Shown: in pieces, positions 3,540-17,189 of the stretch | Layout of the letters: every line of letters begins with the position of its first letter | How positions within the stretch are numbered: the stretch's first letter is position 1 | The notes under the pieces: model-generated | Database searches by the model: none | The model's input: the letters and a program-made list of their open reading frames with translations, nothing else | Told to the model about the DNA's origin: nothing | Source of the DNA: Acidimicrobiales bacterium | Lineage (GTDB): Bacteria; Actinomycetota; Acidimicrobiia; Acidimicrobiales; Bog-793 | Direction of reading: 5' to 3' | NCBI GenBank assembly: GCA_035532475.1 | Contig: DATKQY010000061.1 | Coordinates: 16,669-80,668 of the forward strand | Length of the DNA stretch: 64,000 bases | Position numbers and translations under genes: made by a program

Positions 3540-3677
3540 GCCGGAGGCTGCGATGATGCTCGAGGCCACTGCTGAGCAGGCGGGCAGCCGGGCTACCGCG
3601 GACGGTGGAGTTCACATCGTCATGGGCGGTACGGCTCCACACTTCGCGTTAGGAAGTTCGTCCCAGAGGAGGTTGGC

Positions 3678-4361
3678 GTGAGCAGCCTCCCGGAACACAC
3701 TTCATACGTGCACCAGACGACCGTGATGATTGTCGACAGCCACCCCGTGCTCTGCGAGGCGCTGACCAACCGCTTGTCGGAAGAGGCCGACCTGCGGGTG
3801 CTCGCCACCGCCTCGTCGGCGACGGGTCTCGTCGAGCTCGTCGCGATGCATCGTCCGCAAGTGCTAGTGCTCGACGCGGAGCTGGGCGAGGCGAACGGCG
3901 CCGCGCTCATCCGTCAGATCCGAACGACCCAGCCGGGAACCGCCATCGTCCTCCTCACATGCAACGAGGACGCCGACAGCGCCGCGCACGCCATGCGCAT
4001 GGGCGCCACGGCCTTCGTGTTGAAGGTGGCTCCGGTCCAGGACCTGCTCACCGCGATCCGCTGGGCAGGCCAGGGCGAGATGTGGATGTCGCCGCCCCTG
4101 TTGACGAACCTGTTCAGCGAGATCAGGACGCGCTCGGGCGGCGAGCGCACCCGCAGCCGGCTCTCCCAGCTCACCCAGCGTGAGCTGGAGGTGCTCGAAC
4201 TGCTGGTCGAAGGGCTCAGCCACGCGGCAATCGCCAAGCGGCTGCACCTCGCGGTCAACACGGTGCGCACGCACACCCACAACCTGCAGACCAAGCTGAA
4301 CGTCCACTCCAACCTCGCCGCAGTGTCGGTCGCACTCGACGAAGGACTCCGACCCAAGTAA
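3678..4361 (+). CDS. Second NarL/LuxR-family response regulator (no cognate kinase adjacent)
   Basis: Receiver VMIVDSHPVLCEAL...VLVLDAELGEANG...LLTCNED...FVLKV. LuxR HTH LTQRELEVLELLVEGLSHAAIAKRLHLAVNTVRTHTHNLQTKLNV. GTG start preceded by GAGGAGG. Confidence 0.85.
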   Translation: MSSLPEHTSYVHQTTVMIVDSHPVLCEALTNRLSEEADLRVLATASSATGLVELVAMHRPQVLVLDAELGEANGAALIRQIRTTQPGTAIVLLTCNEDADSAAHAMRMGATAFVLKVAPVQDLLTAIRWAGQGEMWMSPPLLTNLFSEIRTRSGGERTRSRLSQLTQRELEVLELLVEGLSHAAIAKRLHLAVNTVRTHTHNLQTKLNVHSNLAAVSVALDEGLRPK

Positions 4362-4483: not shown

Positions 4484-5344
4484 ATGTCCGTCCCTCACGC
4501 AGCTGAAGTGCCCCAGGCAGGCGAGATCCTCCTCGAGCACCGCCGGCAGAACGGTGCCCGGGACGTCGCAGCCTCGCTCGAACCGGTGGCCCGCGTGAAC
4601 CCGAAGGGGTTCCCCGCGGAGGTCGCCCAGGGGCGCTCGACCGTCAGTCTCGTCATCCCGGCGAAGAACGAGGCGCGTAACCTGCCGAACGTTCTCGACC
4701 ACCTGCCGTCCTGCATCGACGAGGTCATCCTCGTCGACGGCCGGTCCTCGGACGTCACGAAGGTCATCGCCGCGACGTGCCGTCCCGACATCCGGATCAT
4801 CAGCGAGCCGGGACCTGGCAAGGGGCTGGCGCTGCGCGCCGGCTTCGCGGCCGCCCGCGGGGACATCGTCATCGCGATGGACGCCGACGGCAGCATGTCT
4901 CCTGCGGAGATCCCCCAGTTCATCTACTTCCTGGAGCACGGCTTCGACTTCGTGAAGGGTTCGCGCTTCATCGGTGGCGGCGGTTCGCTCGACATCACGA
5001 CGATCCGTCGCATCGGCGACCGGGCGCTTCTGTACGCGGCCAACTTCATCTACCGGGCGAAGATCACCGACATCAACTACGGGTTCTACGCGTTCAAGCG
5101 CCAGTACCTCGAGCACCTTGACCTCCGCTCCTCGGGCTTCGAGATCGAGGCGGAGCTGATGATCAGGGCGCTCAAGGCGGGGCTGCGAATCGCCGAGGTG
5201 CCGAGTCTCGAGATGCCCCGCCGTGCCGGTCGCTCCAACCTCCACGCCTTCCAGGACGGTCAGCGGGTGCTGCGAACCCTGCTCTCCGAACGGAAGCGCC
5301 CGACCTCGCTCCCCCAGCCCTCGCGAGCGAACGGGCTGTCATGA
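4484..5344 (+). CDS. GT2 glycosyltransferase, polyprenyl-phosphate sugar synthase-like (DPM1/GtrB type)
   Basis: VSLVIPAKNEARNLPNVL...EVILVDGRSSD...PGKGLALRAGFAAARGDIVIAMDADGS...FVKGSRF...GFYAFKR. AAAGGAAGG Shine-Dalgarno 8 nt before the ATG. Confidence 0.85.
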   Translation: MSVPHAAEVPQAGEILLEHRRQNGARDVAASLEPVARVNPKGFPAEVAQGRSTVSLVIPAKNEARNLPNVLDHLPSCIDEVILVDGRSSDVTKVIAATCRPDIRIISEPGPGKGLALRAGFAAARGDIVIAMDADGSMSPAEIPQFIYFLEHGFDFVKGSRFIGGGGSLDITTIRRIGDRALLYAANFIYRAKITDINYGFYAFKRQYLEHLDLRSSGFEIEAELMIRALKAGLRIAEVPSLEMPRRAGRSNLHAFQDGQRVLRTLLSERKRPTSLPQPSRANGLS

Positions 5345-6780
5345 CCGCGACGGCCGATTTCGGCCGTCGCGTGGTGGCGCCGCCGCGTATCGGCGCGCGG
5401 GATTCTGGGCCTGCCGCCGGCGCGGCGGGCACATTCCGGCCTGTCCTGGTGCTGGAAGCAGAGCTCGAGCGCGGCCTGCGGGACGTACTCGATGCCGTGC
5501 AGCACCGGGGCACGAAGACCGCGGGCACACCACGCGCCGCGCTCGTGCTCGTGAGGATCCACAGCCACCCGCTCGGCCTCGTCGCGCTCGACCTCGAGGC
5601 GGACGACCCATCGAGCGCGTGGCCGATCGCGGTCCGCAGCCGCGTCGGCGCCGCGCTCGACGCCCACCTCGGCACTGACGGTCTCGACGGCTACGACATC
5701 TGGGGGGGTGCGCCTGCGCTGCAGCCGGCGTGCCTCGCGGAGCGGCGCGCCGCGCTCGCCGCGGCACGACCGGTGACGGTGATCATCGCGACGAGGGAGC
5801 GCCCGGCCCGCCTGGCGCGCTGCCTCGACTCGTTGCTCGCGCTCGAGTACCCGGACTTCGACGTCGTCGTCGTCGACAACGACCCGGAGACGGACGAGTC
5901 GAAGCGCCTGGTCGAGACGCGCTACGTCCCGACGGGCCGCGTCCGCTACGTACGCGAGACCGAGCGCGGCCTCGGCGCCGCGCACAACTGCGGGCTCAAA
6001 GAGGCGCGCGGCGAGATCGTCGCGTTCACCGACGACGACGTGCTGGTCGACGGGCACTGGCTGAGCGAGCTCGTGATCCCCTTCGTCGCGGACCCGAACG
6101 TCGGCGCCGCGACCGGGCTGATCGTCCCCGCCGAGCTGGAGACGCCCGCACAGGTGATGCTCGAGGCGCACGGCGAGTTCTCGAAGGGCTTCACGCCGCG
6201 TTCGGTCGACCTGGCGGCGCACCGCCCGGCCGACCCCCTCTTCCCGTTCACCCCCGGCAGGTTCGGATCCGGTGCCAACATGGCGTTCGAGACCGCTTGG
6301 CTGCGCGGCGCCGGAGGCTTCGACCCGGCGCTCGGGACGGGCACGACGGCACGGGGTGGCGACGATCTGGAGGCGCTCTTCCGTCTCGTCGTCTCCGGAC
6401 GCGCCCTCGCCTACCGTCCCGGCGCGGTCGTCTGGCACCACCATCATCGGGACATGTCGGCGGTCGAGCGCCAGGCGCACGGCTACGGTGTCGGGCTCGG
6501 TGCCTACCTCACGAGCGCGCTCTTCGAGGAGCCACGAGCGGCGCTGTCGATGGTCACGCGTCTGCCGGCGGCCGTGCGGCACGTCCGGGCGCGCACGGGG
6601 GCCGGATCGGTCGCCTCGAGCGAGCTCGGCGCAGCCCTCGGCTGGACGCCGTCGTGGCCCCGTGCCCTCGTGCGTGCCGAGTGGCGCGGGATCGCGACGG
6701 GCCCGTTCGCCTACCTGAAGAGCCGCCGGGAGCACCCCCGCAGGATCCCCTTCGCCAGCGCGGGAGGGACGAGGCCGTGA
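5341..6780 (+). CDS. GT2 glycosyltransferase with a ~130-aa N-terminal extension
   Basis: VTVIIATRERPARLARCLDSLLALEYPDFDVVVVDNDP...GLGAAHNCGLKEARGEIVAFTDDDVLVD (DxD). ATGA overlap with the upstream GT2. Confidence 0.85.
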   Translation: MTATADFGRRVVAPPRIGARDSGPAAGAAGTFRPVLVLEAELERGLRDVLDAVQHRGTKTAGTPRAALVLVRIHSHPLGLVALDLEADDPSSAWPIAVRSRVGAALDAHLGTDGLDGYDIWGGAPALQPACLAERRAALAAARPVTVIIATRERPARLARCLDSLLALEYPDFDVVVVDNDPETDESKRLVETRYVPTGRVRYVRETERGLGAAHNCGLKEARGEIVAFTDDDVLVDGHWLSELVIPFVADPNVGAATGLIVPAELETPAQVMLEAHGEFSKGFTPRSVDLAAHRPADPLFPFTPGRFGSGANMAFETAWLRGAGGFDPALGTGTTARGGDDLEALFRLVVSGRALAYRPGAVVWHHHHRDMSAVERQAHGYGVGLGAYLTSALFEEPRAALSMVTRLPAAVRHVRARTGAGSVASSELGAALGWTPSWPRALVRAEWRGIATGPFAYLKSRREHPRRIPFASAGGTRP

Positions 6781-9599
6781 CGCTCCACGCGACCGCGACC
6801 GACGACCGCCTCGACGTGCTCGCCCCCGACCCGGCGCTTCGCGCCGTCGTGGCGGGGCCTGCGCGGCCGATCGCCCTCGCGGACCTGTTGAACGATCTCG
6901 GGACGCTCGTGAGGCTCCTCCACGGCGCCCTGAGCGCCGGCGACCTCCTCGACGCCTTCCTCCTCGCTGCTGGTGCGCAGCAGATCGTGGAGGACCGTCT
7001 CGGCGGCCAGCGGCGACTCACCCTGCGGCGTGCCGCCGGGCATCTTGGGGGCCGGCCCGGCCTCGTCCCCCGCACGCTCGGCCGGGCGCTGCGCGCCGTC
7101 GACGCAGCGCTCGTCCGCCTGGGATCCTGGCGCCGCCTCGGGCGCGCGCTCGCCCGGGAGGCCGACGCCACGACCGACTTCCTCGTCGGGCTCGCCCACG
7201 CGCTGCTCGGCGACCCCCCGGGCCAGCAGGAGATGGCCAGGCTGCAACGGCAGGGTCGCGAGCTGGTCTCGCGCCTCGGCGAGCTGGCGCCGGCGCTGGC
7301 GGGCGAGGTTGTCCGGCTGCCCTCGTGCTTCCGCAGCTTCGACCAGCGCCCGGCCGACGTCGTCGCGATGGTGACGACCTTCGCGAGTCGTTGGCCCGAG
7401 CGATCCCGGCCGATCTCGGTCGTCGGACTGCGGACATCGGGTGGCTACCTGGCGCCACTTTGCTCAGCTGCCCTCGAGCGACTCGGCTACGCCTCGGTGA
7501 CGACGATGACCGTGCGCCCGGGCTGGCCGCTTCGACGCCGCAACCGTGCCCTTCTCGGCGCGACGGCGGAAGCCGGCGGGATGGTGCTGGTCCTCGACGA
7601 CCCGCCGGCGACCGGCAAGTCGATCGCCCGCGTGGTGAAGGACCTCGGCCGGGACGCCGGCATACCGTCGGAGTCGGTCGTGCTCCTCCTCGCCACGTTC
7701 GCGGAGGAGGCGTCGCTGCCCGCGCTCGTGGACTGTGGCGCCTCGGTCCTCCTGCCACGCTCGGCGTGGGACGTCGAGCGGCTCCTCCAGCCCGCCTGCG
7801 TGGCGCGCACCCTGGCCGGGCTGCTGCCCGAAGGCAGCGTGGTCCACCGGGTCGAATCGCTCGGTGAGCCGCACCGACCGGTGCGCGGCCATGTCTCCGC
7901 CCGCTACCGGGTCGAGACGAGCGACGCAGTCGGCGACACCGTGCGTACCGAGACGATCGTCGCGGAGGGGGTCGGCCTCGGCTACCTCGGCCGGCACGCG
8001 CTCGCCGTCGCCGAGTCGGCGCCCGAGCTGTACCCGGACGTCCTCGGCGTGGAGAACGGCATCTGCTACCGCCGCTTCCTGCCCGAGGCCTGGCGTCTCG
8101 ACGGCACCCGCCCCGCGCCCGCCACCGCCGACCGCCTCGCTGCCCACGTGGTGCGCCGGGAGCGGGCGCTCAGGGTCGAAGAGGACCGCAGCACCCTCCT
8201 GAGCGGCCGCCAGCCGGCGTGGGAGATCGCCGCGGACCTCGTGGCCCGGACGCTCGGCCCGCTCGGCGTCCCGCTGCGCCTCCCCCTCGTCGATCCCGTG
8301 GTACGGCGGCTCCTCGCCGTCGAGCACCCGACGGTCGTCGACGGCTCGACCGCGCGCGGAGGCTGGTTCCTCAGCCCGACCGGTCCGGTCGCGCGGCGCA
8401 CCGACTTCGCTGAGGGTCCGTTCAGCCACTTCGACCTGGCGAGCTACGACGCCGCCTTCGACCTCGCCGGCGCGACGGTGGCTGTGGGCGACCCCAGGTT
8501 CGCCGCCCGCCTCCGCAGCTCCTACGAGTCCCTGGCGGGCCGGAGCATCGACGCCGAGCGATGGATGCTGCTGCGCCTGGTCCACCTGTGGGATGCCGAG
8601 CGGCTCGAGCTCGCCGCCCCAGCGATGGTGCGCCGCGCCGGCGCTCGCGTGCTCCAGGAGTACGTCGCCGAGCGCTTTCTCCGCGACCTCGCGCCGGTCG
8701 AGGACGGTCCGACCTGTGCGCTCGACCTCGACGGCGTGCTCGAGACCGGCACGCTCGGCTTCTCGGCGACGACCCTCGCCGGGGCGATGGCGCTGCGGGC
8801 GCTTCGGGCCCACGGCTACCGCGTCGTCCTCGCCACCGGGCGCAGCCTCGGCGAGGTCATCGAGCGGTGCGCGGCCTACGGGCTGGCCGGCGGCGTCGCC
8901 GAGTACGGCTCGGTCGCCTACGACCACCTCCGCGGGGAGAGCACCGAGCTCGTCGCGAGCGGCGACGAGGCGGCGGTCGAGGCGTTGCGGGCCGCCCTCC
9001 GCGGCCAACCCGAGCTCACCCTCGACGGGGACTACCCCAGGATCGTCCGCGTCTCGCGCACCCGCGCGGGGCGCACGCGGCGTGGCCTCGACGCCGAGAC
9101 CGTCGCCGGCCTGCTCGAGACGCCCGGGACCGGCGATCGCCTCACGGCGATCCCCGGCGAGTACCAGACCGACTTTGCGGCGACCGGGGTGAGCAAGGAC
9201 CAGGCGCTTTGCGTCCTGCTCGACCAGCTCGACGGTGCCGGCGGGGTCCGCCGGGATCCTGGACACCGCCTCGAGCTGGCCGTCGGCGACGGCCGCGCCG
9301 ACGTCGGGATGCTCCGGCTCGCGCGCCTCGGGCTGGCCCCAGCCAACGCTGACGAGGTGATGCGCCGCAGCGGTGCCTCCGTCCTGAGGCGCTCCTACCA
9401 GGCGGGCCTCGGCGATGCCGTCGGCCGGCTGCTCGGCCACCGGCCAGGCAGCTGCCCGGCGTGCCGGCTGCCCGCGCTCACCCCAGACGCCCGCGAGCTG
9501 CTCGCGCTGGTGTCGGTGCAAGAGGGTGGTCGGCGGGGCGCGCCGGGGCGCCTCCTCGGGCTCGCGGCCGGCGCCGTCCGGGGTCTGTGGCGGACATGA
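6777..9599 (+). CDS. 940-aa multidomain protein: helical N-domain, phosphoribosyltransferase-like domain, kinase-like (apparently degenerate) middle region and HAD-IIB phosphatase domain
   Basis: Real start taken as GTG 6777 (GTGA overlap with the GT2 stop) inside track ORF 5730..9599. PRPP-loop-like MVLVLDDPPATGKSIARVV. HAD motif I CALDLDGVLETG, Lys motif GVSKDQAL, motif III AVGDGRADVGML. Confidence 0.7.
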   Translation: MTLHATATDDRLDVLAPDPALRAVVAGPARPIALADLLNDLGTLVRLLHGALSAGDLLDAFLLAAGAQQIVEDRLGGQRRLTLRRAAGHLGGRPGLVPRTLGRALRAVDAALVRLGSWRRLGRALAREADATTDFLVGLAHALLGDPPGQQEMARLQRQGRELVSRLGELAPALAGEVVRLPSCFRSFDQRPADVVAMVTTFASRWPERSRPISVVGLRTSGGYLAPLCSAALERLGYASVTTMTVRPGWPLRRRNRALLGATAEAGGMVLVLDDPPATGKSIARVVKDLGRDAGIPSESVVLLLATFAEEASLPALVDCGASVLLPRSAWDVERLLQPACVARTLAGLLPEGSVVHRVESLGEPHRPVRGHVSARYRVETSDAVGDTVRTETIVAEGVGLGYLGRHALAVAESAPELYPDVLGVENGICYRRFLPEAWRLDGTRPAPATADRLAAHVVRRERALRVEEDRSTLLSGRQPAWEIAADLVARTLGPLGVPLRLPLVDPVVRRLLAVEHPTVVDGSTARGGWFLSPTGPVARRTDFAEGPFSHFDLASYDAAFDLAGATVAVGDPRFAARLRSSYESLAGRSIDAERWMLLRLVHLWDAERLELAAPAMVRRAGARVLQEYVAERFLRDLAPVEDGPTCALDLDGVLETGTLGFSATTLAGAMALRALRAHGYRVVLATGRSLGEVIERCAAYGLAGGVAEYGSVAYDHLRGESTELVASGDEAAVEALRAALRGQPELTLDGDYPRIVRVSRTRAGRTRRGLDAETVAGLLETPGTGDRLTAIPGEYQTDFAATGVSKDQALCVLLDQLDGAGGVRRDPGHRLELAVGDGRADVGMLRLARLGLAPANADEVMRRSGASVLRRSYQAGLGDAVGRLLGHRPGSCPACRLPALTPDARELLALVSVQEGGRRGAPGRLLGLAAGAVRGLWRT

Positions 9600-12001
9600 G
9601 CGCCATCGTCCAGGATCCGCCCCTGCGCCACCGGGGCGTCACGTCGTTCGCGCGCGAGCTGCGTGAGCCGCTGTTCCGCAACGGCCTCGCGCTGGTGCTC
9701 AGCTCGCTCGCCACCGGCGCGATCGGCGTGCTCTTCTGGCTGCTCGCGGCGCGCTTCTACTCGCCGGCCGTCGTCGGCCGGAACTCCGTCGCCGTCTCCA
9801 CCTTGATGTTCATGGGCGGCGTCGCCCAGCTGAACCTCGCGAGCGCGCTCATCCGCTTCATCCCGCCCGCCGGCCGATCGGTGCGCCGGCTGGTCGTGTG
9901 CGTCTACGCGCTCAGCTCGGCGATCTGCGCCGGCCTCGCGATCGTCTTCCTCCTCCTGGTCGGCCACCTCGTCCCGAGCCTCGCCTACCTCCGCAACGAC
10001 CGGTGGCTGCCGATGTGGTGGGTGCTGTCGAGTGTCGCCTGGGCGATCTTCGTGCTGGAGGACGGTGCGCTCACCGGCCTTCGCCGGGCCCCGATCGTGC
10101 CGATCGAGAACGCGGGCTTCTCGCTGCTCAAGGCGGCGATCGTCATCCCCTTCGCCACGATCTTCCCGACGACCGGGATCTTCGTCGCCTGGACCTTGGC
10201 GACGATCGTGACCATCCTGCCGACGAACATCTACATCTTCGGCCGGGCGATCCCGCTCGCCCACCGGCGTTCCCCCGTCGGCGGAGTGTCCGTGCGCCAG
10301 ATCGCGCGGTTCACCCGTTACGACTTCGTCGGCTCGATCTTCTGGCTGGTCGCGGTGTCGCTCCTGCCGGTGATGGTGATCCGCGAGGTCGGGGCCACGA
10401 AGAGCGCCGCCTTCTCGCTCGCGTGGGTGATCTCGTACTCGTTGTACATGGTGAGCATCAGCATGGGCTCGTCACTCGTCGTCGAGACCGCCGTCGACCA
10501 GTCCCAGCTGGAGCTGCAGTGCCGGCGCGTGATGGCGAACCTCGCAAAGCTGATCACGCCCGCGGTGGTCGTCCTCCTCGCCGGCGCCCCGTTCATCCTC
10601 AAGCTGTTCGGCCACAGCTACTCGGCGGACGGTGCCAACGCCCTCAGGCTGCTCGCGCTCTCCGCGCTGCCCTTCATCGTCAACGGCACCGCCGTCGGCG
10701 CGCTGCGGGCGCGGCGGCGCATGGTCCCGGTCGCCGTGCTGAACATCGGCATGTGCATCTCGGTCGTGGCGATCAGCTGGATCCTGCTGCCGCGAGTCGG
10801 CATCGTCGGCGCCGGCGTCGCGTGGCTCGTCACCCAGTGCGTCGCCGCTGTCGCGATGTTGGCGGCGCGGCGCCTCTGGCTACGGCCGGACTACCGCTTC
10901 CCCGGCATGCGCGCCTGGCTGACCGGACTCTCGCTCCCGCTCGTCCGCCTCGCCGCCAACGCCTCGTTGCCGGAGGTCGTCACCCGCCTGCGCTCGAGCC
11001 GGAGCACCGGCCGGCTGAAGGCGCAACTGCCGAGCGAGGTCGTCGCCGACCTGACCCGCTCGGCGGGCCGGGGCCGGCGACAGCTCGGCGAACTGGAGGT
11101 CCTTCCGAGCGCATCCGACCTCACGGTCGCGATCCTCCACAGCACCGACGGCAAGCCATACGCGGTCGCCAAGGTGCCGCGCACCGACCGGGCCTGCGCC
11201 GACCTGCGCCGCCAGGAGTCGGTGCTGCGTGTGCTCGCCGCTGACGACCGGCTCGGTACCTGGCGGCGCTTCCTTCCGAGCTTCAAGCTCCACGAGCACG
11301 AGCAGCACACGTACGCCGTCGAGTCGCTCGGTCGGGGCGTCGATGCGGCGGGGCTGCTCGGCGGGGCGTCGGCGTCGGCGCTCGCGATCGCCCGGCGCTC
11401 GCTCAAGGCGATCGGCGACCTCCACGAGCGCACGGGCCGCGAGGTCGTGGTCGACGAGCTGCTCTTCGAGCAGCTCCTCGAGCCGTCGCTGCGCCCGCTG
11501 CGCCGGTCGCACCCGTCCGGCATCGTGCCGGCGTCCCAGCTCGTGGCGCTCGCCCGGCTGGAGGACCGCCTACGCGAGGCCAGCATCGGGCGCACCGTCC
11601 CGATCAGCTGGGTCCATGGCGACTTCACGCCGGGCAACGTGATGCTCACCGCCGACGGGGCGCGCGTCACGACGCTGCTCGACTGGGGTCAGGCCCGCCC
11701 CGACGGCATCCCGGCGTTCGACGTCCTCCTGTGGGTCTTCGCGCTGCGCTGCCGGGCTGGCGGCCACCAGTTCGGCGCGGAGGTCCGCCGCGTCATGAGG
11801 TCCGCCGACTGGTCCGGCGATCCCGTGCTCGCGCTTGCCTCGAAGACGCTCGAACGGACCGACATCGCCGCAGGCGACCTCGCGCTCTGGTGCTGGCTCG
11901 ACCACGTCGCCGGCAACCTCGACAAGTCCGAGCGCTACGCACGTCACCCCCTGTGGTGGACGTCGAACGTCGAGCCCGTGCTGCGCGAGGTGGCAGCATG
12001 A
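9596..12001 (+). CDS. Wzx/MOP-type polysaccharide flippase (about 12-14 TM) fused to a C-terminal APH/choline-kinase-type phosphotransferase domain
   Basis: ATG 9596 (ATGA overlap) inside ORF 9461..12001. The N-terminal ~480 aa are polytopic (LALVLSSLATGAIGVLFWLLAARFYSPAVVGRNSVAVSTLMF...). The C-terminus carries the kinase catalytic loop WVHGDFTPGNVML and the DFG-equivalent LLDWGQARPDG. Confidence 0.75.
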   Translation: MSAIVQDPPLRHRGVTSFARELREPLFRNGLALVLSSLATGAIGVLFWLLAARFYSPAVVGRNSVAVSTLMFMGGVAQLNLASALIRFIPPAGRSVRRLVVCVYALSSAICAGLAIVFLLLVGHLVPSLAYLRNDRWLPMWWVLSSVAWAIFVLEDGALTGLRRAPIVPIENAGFSLLKAAIVIPFATIFPTTGIFVAWTLATIVTILPTNIYIFGRAIPLAHRRSPVGGVSVRQIARFTRYDFVGSIFWLVAVSLLPVMVIREVGATKSAAFSLAWVISYSLYMVSISMGSSLVVETAVDQSQLELQCRRVMANLAKLITPAVVVLLAGAPFILKLFGHSYSADGANALRLLALSALPFIVNGTAVGALRARRRMVPVAVLNIGMCISVVAISWILLPRVGIVGAGVAWLVTQCVAAVAMLAARRLWLRPDYRFPGMRAWLTGLSLPLVRLAANASLPEVVTRLRSSRSTGRLKAQLPSEVVADLTRSAGRGRRQLGELEVLPSASDLTVAILHSTDGKPYAVAKVPRTDRACADLRRQESVLRVLAADDRLGTWRRFLPSFKLHEHEQHTYAVESLGRGVDAAGLLGGASASALAIARRSLKAIGDLHERTGREVVVDELLFEQLLEPSLRPLRRSHPSGIVPASQLVALARLEDRLREASIGRTVPISWVHGDFTPGNVMLTADGARVTTLLDWGQARPDGIPAFDVLLWVFALRCRAGGHQFGAEVRRVMRSADWSGDPVLALASKTLERTDIAAGDLALWCWLDHVAGNLDKSERYARHPLWWTSNVEPVLREVAA

Positions 12002-14817
12002 CGGACGTGCTCGCACCCCCGACCTGCGCGATCTCGGTCGTCGTCTGCGCGTACACCGAGGAGCGATGGGATGAGATCAACGCGGCCGTCGCCTCGTTGC
12101 GAACCCAGAGCATCCCCGCCGAAGAGATCATCCTCGTCGTCGACCACTGCCCGAGCCTCCTCGCCCGGGCCCGGCGCGCCTTCGCCGACATTCATGTGAT
12201 CGCGAGCGTCGGGCGGCCGGGACTGTCGGGCGCCCGGAACACCGGCTACGAGGCGGCACACGGTGACGTGGTGGCGTTCCTCGATGACGACGCCACGGCG
12301 GCTCCGGACTGGCTCGAGCAGCTGCAGCGCACCTACCAGGACGGCGAGGTCGCCGGCGTCGGCGGCCTCGTCGTGCCGAACTGGGTCGACCACCGCCCGG
12401 GCTGGTTCCCGGAGGAGTTCGACTGGGTGGTCGGCTGCTCCCACTCGGGGATGCCGTCGGCGACCGCCGACGTGCGCAACTTCGTCGGTGCCAACATGTC
12501 GTTCCGCCGCGACGTGCTCGTCGGCCTCGGCGGTTTCGCCGGCGTGCTCGGCCGCAACGGCGCCGACGCCTCGGGCTGCGAGGAGACCGAGCTGTGCATC
12601 CGGGCCTCGACGTGGCACGAGCACAGCCGCCTCGTCTACGAGCCTGCGGCCCGCGTCGAGCACCGCGTGCCGCGGGCCCGGGGCACCTGGAAGTACTTCC
12701 TCCGCCGCTGCTACGGCGAGGGCAAGTCGAAGGCGCTCGTCCGAAAGATCGCCGGCGCGCAGCACGGGCTGTCCGAGGAGCGGATCCACGTCCGCAGGAC
12801 GATCCCGCTCGCCGTCGCCCGCTCCATCGGCGAGGCGCTACGGGGACGTCCGGTGGCGGGCCTGCGCGCCGTGGCCAACGTCACCGGCACTGGCGTCACC
12901 GTGCTCGGCTACGCCGTCGGCCGCGCGGCCCTGCTGCGCGGCACGGCGCGCCCGCACGAGCGGCTCGCCCCCCCGACGGCGAAGCGGTTGGCTCCTGGCC
13001 GGATCGTGGTGCGGACCTGGCTCGGGGGGACCGCGCTCGGCGCCGGCGCGCTGACGCTCGGCCTGGCGCTGTGGATCACGACGATGGTGCGGGGCGTCCC
13101 GCTCGGCCGCATGAGCGACCTCGGCCTCGTGTCGGTGCTGCCGGCGACGTACTGGGCCGCGCTCGTGCTCGTCACCGTCAGCTTCTGCTCGACGGTCCGG
13201 CGGATGGAGTCGAGCAAGGCGTTGCTCGTCGCGCACGTCGTGCTGCTGCTGGCGATCCTGCACCTCACCCCGAACGTCCTCTACGAGACCCTCCGGTACT
13301 CATGGGCGTGGAAGCACGTGGCGATCACCAACGGTGTCATCGCCCATCACGGCGTGAACACCGCGCAGCCCGACCCGAACCTCGTCGCCTATCAGGACTG
13401 GCCGGGTTTCTTCACCCTGAACGCGCTCTTCTCGTCGGGCTCCGGTTTCGCCTCGCCGCTCAGCTACGCCGGGTGGGCCCCGTTCGTCAGCGAGCTCTCC
13501 TACGCCGGGCCGCTGATCCTCATCTTCCGCACGTTCTCGGCCGACCAGCGGATCCGCTGGACGGCGCTGTGGATCTTCTACCTCGGCAACTGGGTCGGCC
13601 AGGACTACTTCTCGCCGCAGGGCTACGCCTACTTCCTCTACCTCACCGTGATCGCGCTGTGCCTGCGGCACTTCGCGTCCGCGCGGGCCGGGGCGTCATC
13701 GCTCGACGTGGGACCGGCCGCCGTCGAGGTCGCCGAGGAAGCAGCCGAGCAACGGCGGCACGATCGGCGCCTGTACTACCTGTTCACGGTGATCATCATC
13801 GCGGCGGTCGCCTCCAGCCACCAGCTCACCCCGTTCATGATCGTGAGCGCCCTCGCGCTCCTCGCCCTCTTCGGCAGGCTCCGCTACAAGTCGCTGCCGG
13901 TCGTCGCCCTCGCCCTCACCGTCGGCTGGATCGCCTTCGCGGCGCGCACGTTCATGAAGCAGAACATCCCGAGCCTGATCAAGGGTTTCGGTGACCTGCT
14001 GTCGAACACCGCCGTCCAGATGGTCAACCCCGGGCAGGCGAGCTCCCTGCAGCTGTTCGGCTCCGAGGTCGACCGTCTCCTCACCGCCGCCGTGATCCTG
14101 CTCGGCGCCTTCGGCTTCCTGTGGCGCTGGCGCAACGGCCAACAGCGCGCCTGGTTCCCGGCGGCGCTGCTCTGCGCCTCGCCGATGCTCGCCCTCGCGG
14201 CGAACAACTACGGGGGCGAGATCGTGTTCCGCGTCGTGCTGTTCGCGCTCCCCTTCCTCGCCGTGCTCGCCGCGTCGCTGTTCGTCCCGGCGCGCCACCG
14301 GCCGGGACGGCGCCACCGGGTGCACAACGCGGCCAGGCTCGCGGTCGTGGCGGCGCTGCTCGGCGGCTTCATCATCTCCTACTACGGCAAGGAACGGACG
14401 AACTACTTCCCGCCCGAGGAGGTACAGAGCTTCTCCGCCCTCTACCGCCTCGCCCCTCCCGGATCGCTCATCGTCGCCGCGACCGGCAATCAACCGTGGC
14501 CGCTCGAGAACTACGAGACCTACAGCGACTACTACTTCACCGCCGACACGCCCCAGGCACTCGCCGACGTCATCAAGCACCCGGTCGCCGTGCTGGCCCA
14601 CGACCTGACGGCGAGGAAGGACGCGTTCTTGGTGTTCGACACGACCGACGACGCGGTGATCGAGAGCACCGGGTTGATGCCGCGGGGCGCGTACGGCGCC
14701 GTCGAGCGAGCGGTGCTCGCGTCGCCCCGGTTCAAGGTCCTGCTACGGAACTCGACGACCGTCGTCCTCGAGCTCGCCTCGCGTGGCGCGTCCACCACGC
14801 AGCCGGTGAACGCATGA
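11998..14817 (+). CDS. GT2 glycosyltransferase fused to a ~14-TM domain with a C-terminal soluble domain (GT-C- or polymerase-like topology)
   Basis: ATG 11998 (ATGA overlap). GT2 part: ISVVVCAYTEERWDEINAAVASLRTQ...GLSGARNTGYEAAHGDVVAFLDDDA...FPEEFDWVVGCS. About 14 hydrophobic helices follow, then a ~130-aa hydrophilic tail. Confidence 0.75.
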   Translation: MTDVLAPPTCAISVVVCAYTEERWDEINAAVASLRTQSIPAEEIILVVDHCPSLLARARRAFADIHVIASVGRPGLSGARNTGYEAAHGDVVAFLDDDATAAPDWLEQLQRTYQDGEVAGVGGLVVPNWVDHRPGWFPEEFDWVVGCSHSGMPSATADVRNFVGANMSFRRDVLVGLGGFAGVLGRNGADASGCEETELCIRASTWHEHSRLVYEPAARVEHRVPRARGTWKYFLRRCYGEGKSKALVRKIAGAQHGLSEERIHVRRTIPLAVARSIGEALRGRPVAGLRAVANVTGTGVTVLGYAVGRAALLRGTARPHERLAPPTAKRLAPGRIVVRTWLGGTALGAGALTLGLALWITTMVRGVPLGRMSDLGLVSVLPATYWAALVLVTVSFCSTVRRMESSKALLVAHVVLLLAILHLTPNVLYETLRYSWAWKHVAITNGVIAHHGVNTAQPDPNLVAYQDWPGFFTLNALFSSGSGFASPLSYAGWAPFVSELSYAGPLILIFRTFSADQRIRWTALWIFYLGNWVGQDYFSPQGYAYFLYLTVIALCLRHFASARAGASSLDVGPAAVEVAEEAAEQRRHDRRLYYLFTVIIIAAVASSHQLTPFMIVSALALLALFGRLRYKSLPVVALALTVGWIAFAARTFMKQNIPSLIKGFGDLLSNTAVQMVNPGQASSLQLFGSEVDRLLTAAVILLGAFGFLWRWRNGQQRAWFPAALLCASPMLALAANNYGGEIVFRVVLFALPFLAVLAASLFVPARHRPGRRHRVHNAARLAVVAALLGGFIISYYGKERTNYFPPEEVQSFSALYRLAPPGSLIVAATGNQPWPLENYETYSDYYFTADTPQALADVIKHPVAVLAHDLTARKDAFLVFDTTDDAVIESTGLMPRGAYGAVERAVLASPRFKVLLRNSTTVVLELASRGASTTQPVNA

Positions 14818-15302
14818 GCGCCGGCCGCGTCCCCGTCGAGCACCCGCAGTCGCGTCGAGGCGCCCTCCGGCTCGAGCCCTCCCCGGAGCTCCTCCTCGCG
14901 CTGTCCGGCTGGGTCGCCGTCGCCATCGTGGCGTTGCAGGCGCCGGTTCCCCTCCGCACGATCGCCGTCTTCGGCTTCTCCGCCTCCGGGCCGGGGTTGG
15001 CACTCACCGCCTTTCTCGTGCGGCGCGACCGGCTCGAGCGCTTCGTGCTCACCCTCGCGCTCAGCCTCGCCGTCGCCACCTTGGTGAGCGAGGCCTTGGC
15101 GCTCGCCCACGCCTTCAGCGCCCTCACAACGCTCGTGACGCTGGCAGCCCTCACGACCGTTCTCGTCGGGGTCCACGCCCGCGACCGCCTCGCCGGACCC
15201 GGGCGGCGAGCCGCCCAGCTGCTCAGCCGTGCCTTTCTCGGCCCCGAGGAGGAACGCAAGGCCGCCATGCCCCCGCGGCCCAACAAGGAGGTTGTGGCAT
15301 GA
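14814..15302 (+). CDS. Small 4-TM membrane protein, function unknown
   Basis: ATG 14814 (ATGA overlap) within ORF 14121..15302. Four hydrophobic segments (LLLALSGWVAVAIVAL, IAVFGFSASGPGLALTAFLV, FVLTLALSLAVATLVSEALALA, LTTLVTLAALTTVLVGV). The gene is overlap-coupled on both sides. Confidence 0.55.
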   Translation: MSAGRVPVEHPQSRRGALRLEPSPELLLALSGWVAVAIVALQAPVPLRTIAVFGFSASGPGLALTAFLVRRDRLERFVLTLALSLAVATLVSEALALAHAFSALTTLVTLAALTTVLVGVHARDRLAGPGRRAAQLLSRAFLGPEEERKAAMPPRPNKEVVA

Positions 15303-16141
15303 ACGCCATGCCGATCCCGATCCTGCTGTACCACGCGGTATCGCCGGATCCGCCGCGCTGGCTCGAGCCGTGGAACGTCACCCCGGAGGTGTTTAGCGAG
15401 CAGCTCGACACGATCGTCGAGAACGGCTGCACGCCGTTCACGGTGTCGGGGCTGGTCGACATGCTCATGTCGCACAAGGAGCTGCCCGAGCGCCCGGTCG
15501 TCATCACCTTCGACGACGGCTTCGCCGACTTCGCTACCTACGCGGCGCCGGCACTCGCGGAGAGGGACATCCCGAGCACGATCTACGTGACGACGGGCAC
15601 CCTCGCCGGGCGGCAGGGCGCTCGTGACGTGAAGCTGCCGCCGGCCGCCATGCTCAGCTGGTCGGACCTCGCCGGGCTCGAGGGGCACGGCGTGGAGATC
15701 GGCGGGCACTCCCACACGCACCCCGAGCTCGACACGCTCTCCGCCGAGCGCGCGGCAGCCGAGATCCTGCGGCCGAAGGAGCTGCTCGAGGACGTCCTCG
15801 GCCACACCGTGCCGAGCTTCGCGTACCCGCACGGCTACTCGAGCCCGCGCATCCGGCGGATCACCGCCGAGGCAGGGTACGAGTCGGCCTGCGCGGTCCG
15901 CAACGCCTTCAGCTCCGTCTCGGACAACCTCTACGCCCTCTCGCGCCTGACCGTGCGGGACTTCACCCCGATGTCGACGCTGTCGGCCTGGTCGCTCGGC
16001 ACCGGTGCCGAGGTGGCGCCGCCGGGCGAGCGCCGCAGGACGCAGCTCTGGCGCTGGTACCGCAGGGCGCACCTCGACTCCATCGCCGGCGCGCCGTTCG
16101 CCGCGGCCGCGGCGCGAGGCGCTGACGAAGCGAGCCGATGA
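15299..16141 (+). CDS. Polysaccharide deacetylase (CE4, NodB homology domain)
   Basis: NodB motifs VVITFDDGF and GGHSHTHPEL, plus AYPHGY. CAAGGAG Shine-Dalgarno. ATGA overlap with the upstream gene. Confidence 0.85.
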   Translation: MNAMPIPILLYHAVSPDPPRWLEPWNVTPEVFSEQLDTIVENGCTPFTVSGLVDMLMSHKELPERPVVITFDDGFADFATYAAPALAERDIPSTIYVTTGTLAGRQGARDVKLPPAAMLSWSDLAGLEGHGVEIGGHSHTHPELDTLSAERAAAEILRPKELLEDVLGHTVPSFAYPHGYSSPRIRRITAEAGYESACAVRNAFSSVSDNLYALSRLTVRDFTPMSTLSAWSLGTGAEVAPPGERRRTQLWRWYRRAHLDSIAGAPFAAAAARGADEASR

Positions 16142-16184
16142 CCATGGCCGCCCATCCACCACGCCACGTGGCGCCTGGGAGAGG

Positions 16185-17189
16185 ATGAGCACGGTGAGCT
16201 CGCAAACCGTCCTCTCCGAGCCCCCAGTGGCCGTCCGGCGCTCGACGCCGGCGCACCGGCGCACGAAGCCGCCCTTTCGCGAGCGCGCCCGGCACCTGCC
16301 GGGCGTCGTGATGCTCATCGCGCTGTTTTCGCTGGCGGGGCTCGTCGTCGTGCACGACGCCTCGACCAGGTCGGTCCCGCCCTCGGCGACGGCGACGCCG
16401 CCGAAGGCGACGCCGGCGACGCCGCCGAAGCTCCCGGCGTCGAGCTTCATCCCCTCGACCGGAGCGGCGACCCCGCCACGCGGTGGGCCATGGCTGCTCT
16501 CCTTCGACGACGAGTTCAACCGGTCGGCCCTCGATCGCAGTAAGTGGACCGTCTGCTACCCGTGGGACTGCACGAACACGGGCAACAAGAACGAGCTCGA
16601 GTGGTACCAGCCACAGAACGTCACCGAGAGCGGCGGGACGCTGCAGCTCACCGCCAAGGTCCAGTCGGCGCACGGCATGCCCTTCACCTCGGGGTTGATC
16701 CAGACCGACAAGAAGTTCACGTTCCGCTACGGCTACATGGAGATCCGGGTGCGCCTTCCCAAGGGGCAGGGACTGTGGCCCGCCTTCTGGGCGTTGCCGA
16801 CGAACGAGAGCTTCCCGCCAGAGATCGACGGGTTCGAGTACTACGGAGCGAACCCGACGGCCGCCATGCTCGGGGTGCACTACGGCAACAACCTGCACTC
16901 GGCGAACGTGATCGGCGACCCTGCGCTCACCGAGGGCTACCACACCTTCGCCGTCGACTGGGAGCCGGGCTCGCTCACCTGGTACGTGGACGGGGTCGAG
17001 AAGTTCAAGACGGACGTCAACGTGACCCAGACGATGTACCTCATCGCGAACCTCGCCGTCCGGGGACCGCTCGGCGCGGACGCCAAGACGCCGATGCCCG
17101 CCACGATGTCGATCGACTGGATCCGGGTGTGGCAGCACCCGTTGCCGGTCAAGCACGTCGCCCCCGGCAAGGCGCCCTGGCCGAGGTAG
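16185..17189 (+). CDS. Membrane-anchored GH16 family glycoside hydrolase (beta-glucanase-like)
   Basis: ATG 16185 after GGGAGAGG, inside ORF 16005..17189. N-terminal TM VVMLIALFSLAGLVVV, then a Pro/Thr linker. Catalytic ExDxxE as PPEIDGFEY. RYGYMEIRVRLPKGQGLWPAFWAL. Confidence 0.85.
   Translation: MSTVSSQTVLSEPPVAVRRSTPAHRRTKPPFRERARHLPGVVMLIALFSLAGLVVVHDASTRSVPPSATATPPKATPATPPKLPASSFIPSTGAATPPRGGPWLLSFDDEFNRSALDRSKWTVCYPWDCTNTGNKNELEWYQPQNVTESGGTLQLTAKVQSAHGMPFTSGLIQTDKKFTFRYGYMEIRVRLPKGQGLWPAFWALPTNESFPPEIDGFEYYGANPTAAMLGVHYGNNLHSANVIGDPALTEGYHTFAVDWEPGSLTWYVDGVEKFKTDVNVTQTMYLIANLAVRGPLGADAKTPMPATMSIDWIRVWQHPLPVKHVAPGKAPWPR

Follow-up and report, generated by a model that had tools for sequence, protein, structure and literature searches.

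A phosphoribosyltransferase, kinase-like and HAD-IIB phosphatase fusion in an actinobacterial glycan cluster: a possible glycan ribosyltransferase

What would a glycan gene cluster do with one polypeptide that joins a phosphoribosyltransferase (PRT) core, a kinase-like region and a phosphatase? The question arises at positions 6777-9599 of the window, by which we mean the whole 64,000-nucleotide stretch of Acidimicrobiales DNA analysed here; all features given below lie on the + strand. Stop-free translation of 6777-9599 yields 940 aa, comprising a helical domain, a type-I PRT, a pseudokinase-like domain, a HAD-IIB phosphatase and a Cys-rich tail.

Gene and conservation of the fusion

The GTG start lies 8 nt 3' of a Shine-Dalgarno-like GGGAGGG run and overlaps the stop of the upstream gene (GTGA), and the stop of the target gene overlaps the ATG of the next gene (ATGA). 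GC content by codon position is 0.81/0.55/0.91, as expected of a real gene in a 75% GC genome, and a JGI contig carries an independent call of the identical 940-aa product (P0001). We conclude that 6777-9599 is a genuine gene, translationally coupled to both neighbours.

We found the same domain order in 86 protein clusters, drawn from the genomes of 234 species of soil bacteria in the Actinomycetota, Chloroflexota and Dormibacterota. Full-length relatives in these clusters share 33-48% identity with the target, and the three parts were contiguous in all 82 of the 82 loci fetched. An origin as a frameshift-fused artefact is ruled out by these full-length relatives and by the contiguity of the parts.

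Domains of the fusion protein

In the AF2 model (pLDDT 91.8, pTM 0.91), aa 1-27 (6777..6857) are disordered, with pLDDT <50, and are unconserved in the family alignment. They are followed by a bundle of five long helices (aa 28-175, 6858..7301; helices at aa 41-170) that carries a conserved LDAFLLAAGxxQxxED motif with nearly invariant Q69 and D73. Foldseek gave no convincing match covering this part, and the bundle is a candidate stand-in for the PRT 'hood' and acceptor site.

The type-I PRT core occupies aa 176-345 (7302..7811). It contains the motif RLPSCFRSFDQxPxD (7323-7346), a PPi-loop-like VVGLRTSGGYLAP (7425-7457), a TxRPG loop (7509-7523) and an intact PRPP loop, VLVLDDPPATGKS (7584-7622, aa 270-282). 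PF00156 matches 20 of the 41 family members (best E 8.9e-9); alignment of the family profile with PyrR and other PRTases spans both signature loops (E 3e-3); and Foldseek returned HPRT, PyrR and XPRT at a TM of ~0.5 and probability 1.00, with weak E-values (5e-3 to 3e-2). Residues D189, G217, R219, G222, R247, D274, P276 and P277 are invariant, and none of the three phyla departs from the acidic DD pair, the TG-x-S loop or the Arg-containing loops. Classical type-I PRTases (HPRT/XPRT, PyrR, OPRT, APRT; PF00156) thus share with the target a five-stranded alpha/beta core, a PRPP loop and PPi-loop motifs, and they are its best sequence and fold matches, though weak ones (E ~3e-3, TM ~0.5, 10-21% identity). 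In contrast to these enzymes, the target is embedded in a glycan cluster, and its hood and base-binding elements are replaced by the helical bundle and the kinase-fold domain.

The next domain (aa 346-640, 7812..8696) adopts a choline-kinase/APH fold without the canonical catalytic residues, as judged from AF2 and Foldseek. The model predicts a five-strand N-lobe and a helical C-lobe, and the best Foldseek matches are LicA and choline, ethanolamine and malto-kinases (E 2.5e-5, TM 0.45-0.56). The assignment is one of predicted fold only: searches of PDB and Pfam gave no sequence-level match for this domain, and hhalign against the cluster's own APH kinase gave a probability of 0.14%. The bilobal fold is common to choline and ethanolamine kinases, LicA, APH and maltokinase, and a C-lobe helix motif of the target, 'Y-D-x-x-F-D-L-A', resembles the APH-family 'DLA' motif, but homology to these kinases is not detectable at the sequence level and the target lacks their ATP-binding Lys, Brenner HxDxxxxN loop and conserved metal-binding Asp. 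In the family alignment, (P)SVVDG stands in place of the HxDxxxxN loop, no beta3 Lys is conserved, and the Asp of 'K-x-D-F' (the DFG/IDFE equivalent) varies among D, H, S, L, G, Q and N. A different set of residues is invariant, namely R370, H372, G400, G402, G405, R461, D558 and D562, together with the GxGxGYxGRH motif; D522, at the catalytic-loop Asp position expected from the motif layout, is nearly invariant. The domain occurs almost only in the architecture of the target.

The phosphatase domain (aa 641-886, 8697..9434) is a Cof-type HAD-IIB enzyme by Pfam, TIGR00099 and PDB matches. It contains motif I DLDGV (8721-8744), motif II TGR (8829-8846), motif III with K807 (9186-9200) and motif IV GDGRAD (9282-9308), and all 41 sequences compared keep D650, D652, G688, R689, K807, G837, D838 and D842. 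Hydrolase_3 passes its curated cut-off (E 4e-6), TIGR00099 (Cof) matches at E 6.6e-7, and the PDB matches are of Cof type only. Sucrose-P, trehalose-P and mannosyl-3-phosphoglycerate phosphatases are included in the NCBIfam/PDB matches, and the target shares HAD subclass and motifs with sucrose-6-P, trehalose-6-P and mannosyl-3-phosphoglycerate phosphatases and Cof/YidA; it does not, however, score anywhere near the equivalog cut-off of any named family. The protein ends in a tail (aa 887-940, 9435..9596) with invariant H888, C893 and C896 (GHRPGxCxxC) and a hydrophobic or amphipathic end, which in some relatives runs directly on into a Wzx-like membrane domain.

The domain map drawn by the sequence-only reading therefore stands up well. 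Its helical N-terminus, its PRTase-like domain with a PRPP loop and its complete HAD-IIB/Cof-type phosphatase are all borne out, as is the likeness of the middle region to an APH C-lobe and the missing HxDxxxxN loop. The motifs it quoted are all present in the protein, with RRTDFAEG...SYDAAFDLAG at aa 540-565, LDLDGVLE at 649-656, GVSKD at 804-808 and VGDGRADVG at 836-844.

Gene neighbourhood, proposed function and alternatives

The target gene belongs to an ATGA/GTGA-coupled chain in the order GT2a-GT2b-target-Wzx/APH-GT2c; frequencies below refer to the 49 homologous loci with full flanks. GT2a (4484..5344; 26/49) is a polyprenyl-phosphate hexosyltransferase-like GT2 resembling AglJ, Dol-P hexose transferase, PpgS and ArnC. 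GT2b (5341..6780; 37/49), a soluble GT-A glycosyltransferase, is translationally coupled to the target gene. Downstream, a Wzx-like polytopic flippase domain is fused to an APH-family kinase whose HGDFTPGN loop is intact (9596..12001; Wzx in 36 and APH in 41 loci), and GT2c (11998..14817) joins an AglG-like GT2 of 250 N-terminal aa (35/49) to a polytopic membrane domain of unassigned family with about 8-10 predicted TM segments, followed by a C-terminal soluble part (membrane part, 39/49). Further on are a CE4 polysaccharide deacetylase similar to PgaB, HfsH and NodB (15299..16141; 37/49) and a membrane-anchored, SKN1/KRE6-like GH16 glycoside hydrolase or transglycosylase (16005..17189; 27/49). 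The GH16 start codon is uncertain because its reading frame overlaps the deacetylase gene. The same gene set, in shuffled order, surrounds target homologues in three phyla, and in some relatives the whole three-domain unit is fused to an AglG-like GT2, Wzx or PAP2. An inosine-uridine nucleoside-hydrolase-like (ribosidase) gene adjoins the cluster in 5 of 84 loci.

We propose as the likeliest reading, by analogy with known systems, that the target is a convergent PRPP-dependent glycan ribosyltransferase and 5-phosphatase acting on a lipid-linked glycan; we judge this reading to be about evenly balanced between right and wrong. Donor, acceptor, product and order of steps are what we infer here. 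The target would be a soluble enzyme at the cytoplasmic membrane face that phosphoribosylates the lipid-linked glycan and then dephosphorylates it. Mg-PRPP would be bound by the type-I PRT core: the DD pair (D274, D275) would contact the metal and the hydroxyls of the ribose, the 5-phosphate would sit in the TGKS loop, and the pyrophosphate would be held by R219/T220. Ribose-5-phosphate would pass to a hydroxyl of an oligosaccharide carried on polyprenyl monophosphate and made by the neighbouring AglJ-like and AglG-like GT2 enzymes, although the acceptor group could instead be a phosphate or amine. The acceptor pocket may be formed by the conserved SCFRSFDQxPxD segment together with the helical bundle and the pseudokinase-like domain packed closely against them. 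This last domain has lost its phosphotransfer residues, and its part would be to recognise the acceptor or to act as a scaffold. The Cof-type HAD-IIB domain at the C-terminus would then strip the 5-phosphate, leaving a ribofuranosyl residue open to extension or export, and the product would be flipped by the Wzx-like protein.

This proposal draws on the conservation of both PRT signature loops, the invariance of all four HAD-IIB catalytic motifs, the high-confidence prediction (pTM 0.91) that the helical, PRT and kinase-like domains pack rigidly together, the glycan gene set with its Rosetta-stone fusions, the ribosidase-like gene beside some loci, and the precedent of PRT+HAD enzymes, including their GT fusions or complexes (PMC11127046, PMC10299916, PMC11294581, PMC12096443). 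HAD-IIB enzymes also typically complete 'synthase plus phosphatase' glycoside pathways, in which a synthase makes a phosphorylated glycoside and the phosphatase finishes it; the target would follow the same logic, but its HAD is fused to a PRT and a pseudokinase. Against the glycan ribosyltransferase reading, the target has no detectable sequence kinship with characterised Ribf-transferases, and its PRT core is most like HPRT and PyrR, which use nitrogen nucleophiles or act as regulators. Nor is a ribose-containing glycan known from the carrier organisms, for which a literature search found nothing relevant.

The ribose might instead be loaded on a lipid donor, a reading that we consider unlikely. 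Here the PRT would move ribose-5-P from PRPP to polyprenyl phosphate, the HAD would yield polyprenyl-P-ribofuranose, the Wzx-like protein would flip it and the GT2c membrane domain would use it outside the membrane. The target would then be the soluble counterpart of DPPR synthase with Rv3807c, or of PRP-UbiA 'three-component' systems. Such pentofuranose systems (PRP-UbiA ORF15; M. tuberculosis DPPRS Rv3806c with the PAP2 phosphatase Rv3807c) do pair a PRPP-dependent polyprenyl-P phosphoribosyltransferase with a HAD phosphatase, flippase and membrane GT, and resemble the target in taking ribose-5-P from PRPP and in having a 5-phosphatase of their own, a flippase and a membrane transferase. Some target relatives are moreover fused to Wzx or PAP2 (the mycobacterial DPPR phosphatase is a PAP2 protein), the cluster has a conserved polytopic membrane protein of unassigned family, and the cluster genes scanned include no initiating enzyme of phosphoglycosyl-transferase type. 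However, known polyprenyl-P phosphoribosyltransferases are all integral-membrane UbiA-family proteins, whereas the target is a soluble type-I PRT with no convincing TM segments, its lone weak KD peak (aa 300-318) coinciding with a predicted beta-strand of the PRT core. The cluster's AglJ-like polyprenyl-P glycosyltransferase already supplies an initiating activity, and fusion to a soluble AglG-like GT2, an extender of lipid-linked sugars, better suits a glycan acceptor.

Two other readings reassign one of the domains. The kinase-like domain could be an atypical active phosphotransferase or nucleotidyltransferase, giving three chemical steps, for example with phosphorylation or nucleotidylation of the glycan or ribose and the HAD editing that phosphate. 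Its fold matches small-molecule kinases, and its strongly conserved residues (R370, H372, GxGxGYxGRH, R461, D558, D562 and the nearly invariant D522) could mean a catalytic role of its own beyond that of a scaffold, a point that also counts against the proposed ribosyltransferase reading; 'pseudokinases' with unexpected chemistry, such as SelO, also have precedents. Yet the beta3 Lys and HxDxxxxN Asn are not conserved, the DFG/IDFE-equivalent Asp varies, there is no sequence similarity to any kinase, and with a canonical APH kinase gene beside the target in 41 of 49 loci no second kinase would be needed; we find this reading quite improbable. We give still less credence to a PyrR-like role for the PRT domain, in which it would sense PRPP or a nucleotide without catalysis and regulate a HAD sugar-phosphate phosphatase, or to the enzyme making a soluble nucleoside-like molecule unrelated to the glycan. 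PyrR and the 6-oxopurine PRTases are the nearest matches of the core, and computational proposals of such a kind were mentioned in the sequence-only reading. But invariance of the DD pair, TG-x-S loop and Arg loops across three phyla exceeds a sensor's need, domains unrelated to the purine-binding hood take its place, and the conserved neighbourhood and fusions all consist of membrane-glycan proteins, with no nucleotide or natural-product genes.

Relation to known PRT+HAD glycan enzymes

Biochemical and structural work has established that enzymes combining PRT and HAD domains act as PRPP-dependent ribofuranosyltransferases on bacterial polysaccharides. They transfer Rib-5-P from PRPP to a glycan and then remove the 5-phosphate; examples are PRP-gPRT (PDB 7SHG), Hib Bcs3 CrpP/CriT, Salmonella STM0726 and C. 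jejuni Cj1432 (PMC11127046, PMC10299916, PMC11294581, PMC12096443). Compared with these bipartite enzymes (T. composti 7SHG, K. pneumoniae O4/O7 ORF5/ORF7, Hib Bcs3, Salmonella STM0726, C. jejuni Cj1432), the target likewise carries a PRT-fold, predicted PRPP-dependent transferase and a HAD-superfamily phosphatase on one polypeptide, is encoded in surface-glycan loci and, in some relatives, is fused to a GT domain, PRP-gPRT often being fused to or complexed with a GT-A or GT-B. Transfer of Rib-5-P followed by 5-phosphate removal is likely the same in both.

Despite these likenesses, comparison of the sequences indicates that the target is a lineage separate from PRP-gPRT, with a different layout. 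The two families align with an hhalign probability of 0.13%, and 7SHG and Bcs3 are absent from the PDB profile matches and Foldseek top 50 of the target. The domain order is reversed, as the target places its PRT N-terminal and its HAD C-terminal, whereas the prototypes have PRP N-terminal and gPRT C-terminal; its HAD is Cof-type IIB with a C2B cap, whereas the CrpP cap is inserted in the flap, at the C1-type position; its PRT signature is VDDPPxTGxS with RTSGSYLAP rather than VDLxGSGxTQ with ARDGY; and an extra pseudokinase-like domain of ~300 aa lies between its two catalytic domains. The hosts also differ: the target family occurs in Actinomycetota, Chloroflexota and Dormibacterota, in a system of Wzx and polyprenyl-monophosphate type, whereas the characterised PRP-gPRT examples for which the cited papers state an export route belong to ABC-transporter systems.

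That no characterised protein has the exact architecture of the target, as the sequence-only reading said, holds, and its guess of a phosphoribosyl-bearing glycan precursor agrees with the PRP-gPRT precedent and the gene context. Its view that PRTase+HAD pairs were known just from computational proposals, as producers of nucleoside-like metabolites, is outdated, given that PRP-gPRT (CrpP-CriT) enzymes use PRPP to attach ribofuranose to glycans. This precedent makes the fusion less unprecedented than that reading implied.

A conserved fusion gene

The open reading frame at 6777-9599 (+) runs for 940 codons with its frame unbroken. Its GTG start lies 8 nt 3' of GGGAGGG, a Shine-Dalgarno-like sequence, and shares a GTGA overlap with the stop codon of the GT2 gene upstream, its stop overlaps the ATG of the next gene (ATGA), and that gene is coupled likewise to its own downstream gene. 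GC content at codon positions 1, 2 and 3 is 0.81, 0.55 and 0.91, the signature of a real gene in a ~75% GC genome, in which spurious ORFs of great length are frequent. On an independent JGI contig, gene calling yielded an identical 940-aa protein, and all motifs quoted in a sequence-only reading of the protein were found where that reading had placed them.

The same domain order was sought in other genomes, as that reading had proposed, and it was indeed found. We identified 86 protein clusters that align to 89-98% of the fusion protein at 33-48% identity, and the phosphoribosyltransferase (PRT), kinase-like and HAD parts are contiguous in 82 of 82 loci (80 from a species scan and 2 fetched earlier). 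The full-length clusters and the constant association of the three parts rule out an artefactual fusion or frameshift. With one genome per species, the scan detected relatives in 234 species. Carriers among the Actinomycetota include Streptomyces, Kitasatospora, Streptacidiphilus, Amycolatopsis, Pseudonocardia, Nocardia, Rhodococcus and Actinospica as well as Solirubrobacterales, Thermoleophilia and Acidimicrobiales; beyond this phylum, the family extends to Chloroflexota and Dormibacterota. The closest relative, at 91% identity, belongs to an uncultured Actinomycetota MAG and is syntenic with the window. In this MAG (locus L003, CAVXWO010000014.1, 3859-20421), apparent frame breaks fall inside the histidine kinase, the glycosyltransferase GT2b, the fusion protein and Wzx, all of which are intact in the window; indel errors of the assembly are the most likely cause, and not decay into pseudogenes.

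Domain architecture

We modelled residues 1-645 with AF2 and aligned 75 relatives. The model is confident (pLDDT 91.8, pTM 0.91), with disorder at aa 1-27 only. Five long helices bundled together (aa 41-170) lead into an alpha/beta core (aa 213-326), and aa 355-634 form a lobe of five strands followed by a helical one. When aa 28-345 were modelled separately, the pLDDT was 91 and the PRT matches were reproduced; a Foldseek search with this second model returned nothing convincing for the helical bundle.

The PRT core occupies aa 176-345. Foldseek against the PDB matched it to HPRT, XPRT and PyrR with a probability of 1.00 and TM (target) of 0.45-0.56 over ~145-160 columns, at weak E-values of 5e-3 to 3e-2, and both model and matches show the parallel beta-sheet alpha/beta fold of solved PRTases. 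A Pfam search of the protein itself gave no PF00156 match at E up to 1, so the PRT assignment rests on the 20 of 41 relatives in which PF00156 was found (best E 8.9e-9), together with the profile and fold searches. With aa 170-345 as a profile, the alignment to PyrR and other PRTases runs through both signature loops, pairing VVGvRTSGsYLAP with VGIKTRGIYLA, and vlvvDDPPaTGsS with VILVDDVLYTGRT of PyrR. The second of these loops, MVLVLDDPPATGKS (aa 269-282), has the features of a PRPP-binding loop: a hydrophobic run, two acidic residues, three intervening positions and T-G-x-[TS]. Across the 75 sequences, D274, P276, P277, R219, G217, G222 and R247 are invariant, and D275 and G280 are at least 90% conserved. 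Given the PF00156, profile and fold matches and these invariant residues, the PRT core looks catalytically competent for PRPP binding.

The last modelled module has a bilobal kinase fold, as seen both in Foldseek and in an agreeing secondary-structure layout. Its matches are LicA and choline, ethanolamine and malto-kinases at TM (target) of 0.45-0.56, with LicA (4r7b; E 2.5e-5, TM (target) 0.56) at the top, followed by ~30 choline/ethanolamine kinase chains. The domain is recognisable by fold alone: neither the protein nor its relatives gave a Pfam or NCBIfam match to PF01636 or other kinase homology, and the domain's profile returned only noise against the PDB. In the family alignment, no conserved Lys is present in the strand at aa 389-398 that could serve as the beta3 Lys. 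At the position of the HxDxxxxN loop the protein reads (P)SVVDG, with His and Asn missing, and the Asp of K-x-D-F, the DFG/IDFE equivalent, varies freely across the family. The domain possesses an invariant set of its own, comprising R370, H372, GxGxGYxGRH, R461 and a YDxxFDLAG helix, and D522 is nearly invariant. 'Pseudokinase-like' is a fair description. Against 1.84 billion representative proteins, the domain's profile found 758 clusters, and almost all of the best 150 are ~900-950 aa long with the kinase-like domain at ~residues 320-640; on this showing the domain is essentially private to this architecture. We also considered whether it is a paralogue of the APH encoded downstream, and rejected this on both pairwise comparison (BLASTP E 0.8 or worse) and profile comparison (hhalign probability 0.14% against 47 aligned APH sequences from the cluster).

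The HAD-IIB domain, aa 641-886, is the sole part that Pfam, NCBIfam and PDB searches of the protein itself detect. Hydrolase_3 (PF08282) extends over both HAD halves with a score of 27.2 bits (cut-off 20.9), TIGR00099 (Cof) matches at E 6.6e-7, and PRK01158 aligns over aa 649-885; PDB matches are to Cof/HAD-IIB structures only, of the Cof/YidA sugar phosphatase type. All four HAD motifs (DxDG[TV], [ST]GR, K and GDxxxD) are present, with D650, D652, T687-G688-R689, K807 and G837-D838...D842 invariant or nearly so in 41 sequences, and ~115 residues separate motifs II and III, at the predicted position of the cap. Just after the domain lies a GHRPGxCxxC motif (window 9435-9464, aa 887-896) with invariant H888, C893 and C896. 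High conservation is likewise seen at two further cysteines, C184 of the PRT motif SCFRSFDQ and C698 of the HAD region. A metal site or an inter-domain clamp may be involved.

A glycan-assembly gene cluster

The fusion gene lies in a translationally coupled chain in the order GT2a, GT2b, fusion gene, Wzx-APH, GT2c, deacetylase and GH16. GT2a (4484-5344, +) falls by NCBIfam among polyprenyl-phosphate hexosyltransferases (AglJ, Dol-P hexose transferase, PpgS, ArnC), and GT2b (5341-6780, +) is the glycosyltransferase gene coupled directly to the fusion gene. Downstream, a Wzx-like polytopic flippase is fused to a C-terminal APH kinase whose catalytic loop, HGDFTPGN, is intact (9596-12001, +); such a flippase-tethered kinase is unusual. 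GT2c (11998-14817, +) joins an AglG-like GT2 (11998-12750; NCBIfam E 6.7e-65) to a polytopic membrane domain and is followed 3' by a CE4 deacetylase and by a membrane-anchored GH16 of SKN1/KRE6 type (16005-17189, +). In 49 related loci with full 10-kb flanks, we counted APH in 41, the membrane domain in 39, GT2b and the deacetylase in 37 each, Wzx in 36, the AglG-like GT2 in 35, GH16 in 27 and GT2a in 26. The same gene set surrounds homologues in other phyla, its order shuffled, and some relatives of the fusion protein are themselves fused as whole units to an AglG-like GT2 (N-terminal), Wzx (C-terminal) or PAP2 (N-terminal).

Hydropathy analysis of the fusion protein revealed no convincing transmembrane segment; the one weak peak (aa 300-318) falls on a beta-strand predicted for the PRT core. 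From this, together with the cluster context and the fusions, the protein is predicted to be a cytoplasmic partner of a membrane glycan-assembly machine. The NCBIfam placement of GT2a as AglJ-like and GT2c as AglG-like suggests assembly on polyprenyl monophosphate and not via a phosphoglycosyl transferase, and no initiating enzyme of the latter type was identified among the cluster genes scanned. AglJ and AglG, which these two GT2s resemble, are archaeal N-glycosylation enzymes, a hint that Actinomycetota and Chloroflexota build such a glycan on polyprenyl monophosphate.

Several further features of the neighbourhood were observed. The membrane domain of GT2c (12751-14814, ~690 aa) is predicted to cross the membrane ~8-10 times and ends in a soluble C-terminal portion, carries the conserved motifs RYSWAWKH, WPGFF, GQDYFSPQ, SHQLTP and YGGExxFR, and at times forms a gene of its own in the 39 of 49 related loci where it occurs; it had no match in Pfam, NCBIfam or PDB. 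Between GT2c and the deacetylase lies a small ORF with several predicted TM segments (14796-15302, +), which is conserved in L003 and weakly similar to a 122-aa counterpart in locus L083 and to ORFs of a few other loci. In other species the APH stands alone as a gene or is joined to a GT2; a Nocardia locus (L002) has such a fusion, with a product of > 1,700 aa. In 36 of 84 loci the cluster comes with a FemAB-like Acetyltransf_6 gene, which the window's cluster lacks. Two GH16 (SKN1/KRE6-like) genes, the one at 16005-17189 (+) and another at 19335-20243 (-), flank a prolyl-oligopeptidase-family gene, and several related loci, such as L008, hold two or three GH16 copies.

Immediately upstream of its cluster, the window encodes a histidine kinase together with two response regulators of LuxR type (1912-4361), and nearby is a GAF-ANTAR RNA-binding antiterminator gene (703-1638, +). 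A GAF-ANTAR gene directly adjoins the homologue in two Nocardia loci (L002, 12607-13305; L057, 12613-13152), which suggests that the cluster is regulated by antitermination. In 5 of 84 loci (L083, L065, L074, L076 and L079), the cluster is adjoined by a gene that combines fn3, purple-acid-phosphatase N and inosine-uridine nucleoside hydrolase (ribosidase) domains; in L083 it lies at 13779-15092. This neighbour points weakly to an involvement of ribosyl linkages.

A candidate route for glycan ribosylation

Bipartite enzymes that move ribose-5-P from PRPP onto a sugar and then strip the 5-phosphate are established experimentally, namely PRP-gPRT (PDB 7SHG), Hib Bcs3 CrpP/CriT, Salmonella STM0726 and C. 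jejuni Cj1432 (PMC11127046, PMC10299916, PMC11294581, PMC12096443). The sequence-only reading had held that PRT and HAD pairs existed only as computational proposals, a statement these enzymes make outdated; its observation of the fusion was confirmed, and on account of that statement its interpretation is supported only in part. Fusions of such ribofuranosyltransferases to GT2 or GT4 domains, and complexes with a GT-A protein, are also seen in those papers and among homologues of Cj1432.

We collected 988 clusters of Cj1432 homologues, starting from the sequence in the paper's supplement, and compared our family profile with a 28-sequence profile of Cj1432-type dual-domain proteins. No relationship was detected (hhalign probability 0.13%), which rejects canonical membership of that family; HAD against HAD was also null in the same local hhalign, so these negatives indicate an absence of close homology only and not different folds. 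The 7SHG and Bcs3 chains were absent from 36 PDB profile matches at E up to 10 and from the best 50 Foldseek matches listed for the residues 1-645 and PRT-only models, where similarity at lower rank is possible. The architectures differ as well. In the fusion protein the PRT (aa 176-345) precedes the HAD (aa 641-886), whereas the prototype PRP-gPRT has the reverse order, with PRP N-terminal and gPRT C-terminal; its HAD is Cof-type IIB, whereas CrpP has a cap inserted in the flap; its PRT motifs differ from those of the prototypes; and it carries a pseudokinase domain that they do not have. At the level of motifs, the protein appears to have the capacity for transfer of Rib-5-P from PRPP followed by 5-dephosphorylation. 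It plausibly functions like a ribofuranosyltransferase yet stands outside that family, and looks as if an HPRT/PyrR-like PRT and a Cof-type HAD had been brought together convergently. Literature searches returned nothing relevant on this architecture or on ribose-containing actinobacterial wall polymers.

Based on the direct precedent of a PRPP transferase and a HAD phosphatase in glycan loci, we propose a three-step scheme. The analysis shows the identities of the domains, the integrity of their motifs, their conservation, the gene context and the fusions, while donor, acceptor, product and step order are all inferred. The PRT core would phosphoribosylate a lipid-linked oligosaccharide that the adjacent GT2s have made; the conserved SCFRSFDQxPxD segment, the helical bundle and the pseudokinase-like domain would form the acceptor site; and the HAD-IIB domain would finally take off the 5-phosphate. 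The logic would be that of 'synthase plus HAD-IIB phosphatase', as in sucrose, trehalose and mannosylglycerate synthesis. This scheme, ribosylation of a lipid-linked glycan, has an even chance of being correct.

The acceptor might instead be polyprenyl phosphate itself; the product, polyprenyl-P-ribose, could then be flipped and serve the membrane domain of GT2c as donor. In favour of such a route are the fusions to Wzx and PAP2 and a three-component pentofuranose precedent, but the fusion protein is soluble and its partners are AglJ/AglG-like, and we consider this route unlikely. We regard it as quite improbable that the kinase-like domain is an atypical active enzyme; it retains the bilobal fold and invariant residues of its own, and canonical catalytic residues are missing. 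Most improbable is that the PRT, for which PyrR is among the structural matches, acts as a sensor or that the product is a soluble nucleoside-like molecule; the gene itself lies among glycan-assembly genes.

Ribofuranose entry into bacterial polysaccharides was solved only in 2022-2025, and for a single enzyme lineage, characterised in Gram-negative pathogens. The lineage described here is widespread and architecturally distinct from known ribose-adding enzymes. If its chemistry is the same, PRPP-dependent glycan ribosylation arose at least twice, and its reach extends to major soil and antibiotic-producing lineages, namely Streptomyces, Amycolatopsis, Nocardia and Rhodococcus and to Chloroflexota. 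A conserved, uncharacterised cluster of ~ten genes would then be flagged as a source of new envelope glycans, a pseudokinase domain would have a concrete, testable role in carbohydrate biosynthesis, and glyco-engineering would gain enzymes that run on the cheap donor PRPP. If the chemistry differs, through a lipid acceptor, N- or P-linked ribose or an active atypical kinase, the system would be still more novel.

More broadly, and tentatively, Actinomycetota, Chloroflexota and Dormibacterota could share a widely conserved envelope-glycan pathway that has so far gone unrecognised and whose signature enzyme would be the fusion protein, a view that is possible though on balance doubtful. In such a pathway, archaeal-Agl-like GT2s would build a base on polyprenyl monophosphate, an independently evolved PRT-pseudokinase-HAD protein would add a PRPP-derived ribosyl, and a kinase fold would have been repurposed for acceptor recognition. 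The ribosyl linkage might be unusual, made to a phosphate placed by APH or to an amine exposed by the deacetylase. For bacterial glycobiology, the finding would weigh more with a specific role for the pseudokinase or with unusual linkage chemistry. If the pathway reading is true, PRPP-dependent ribosylation of glycans would have originated a second time, by convergence, and a pseudokinase would have taken on a new task.
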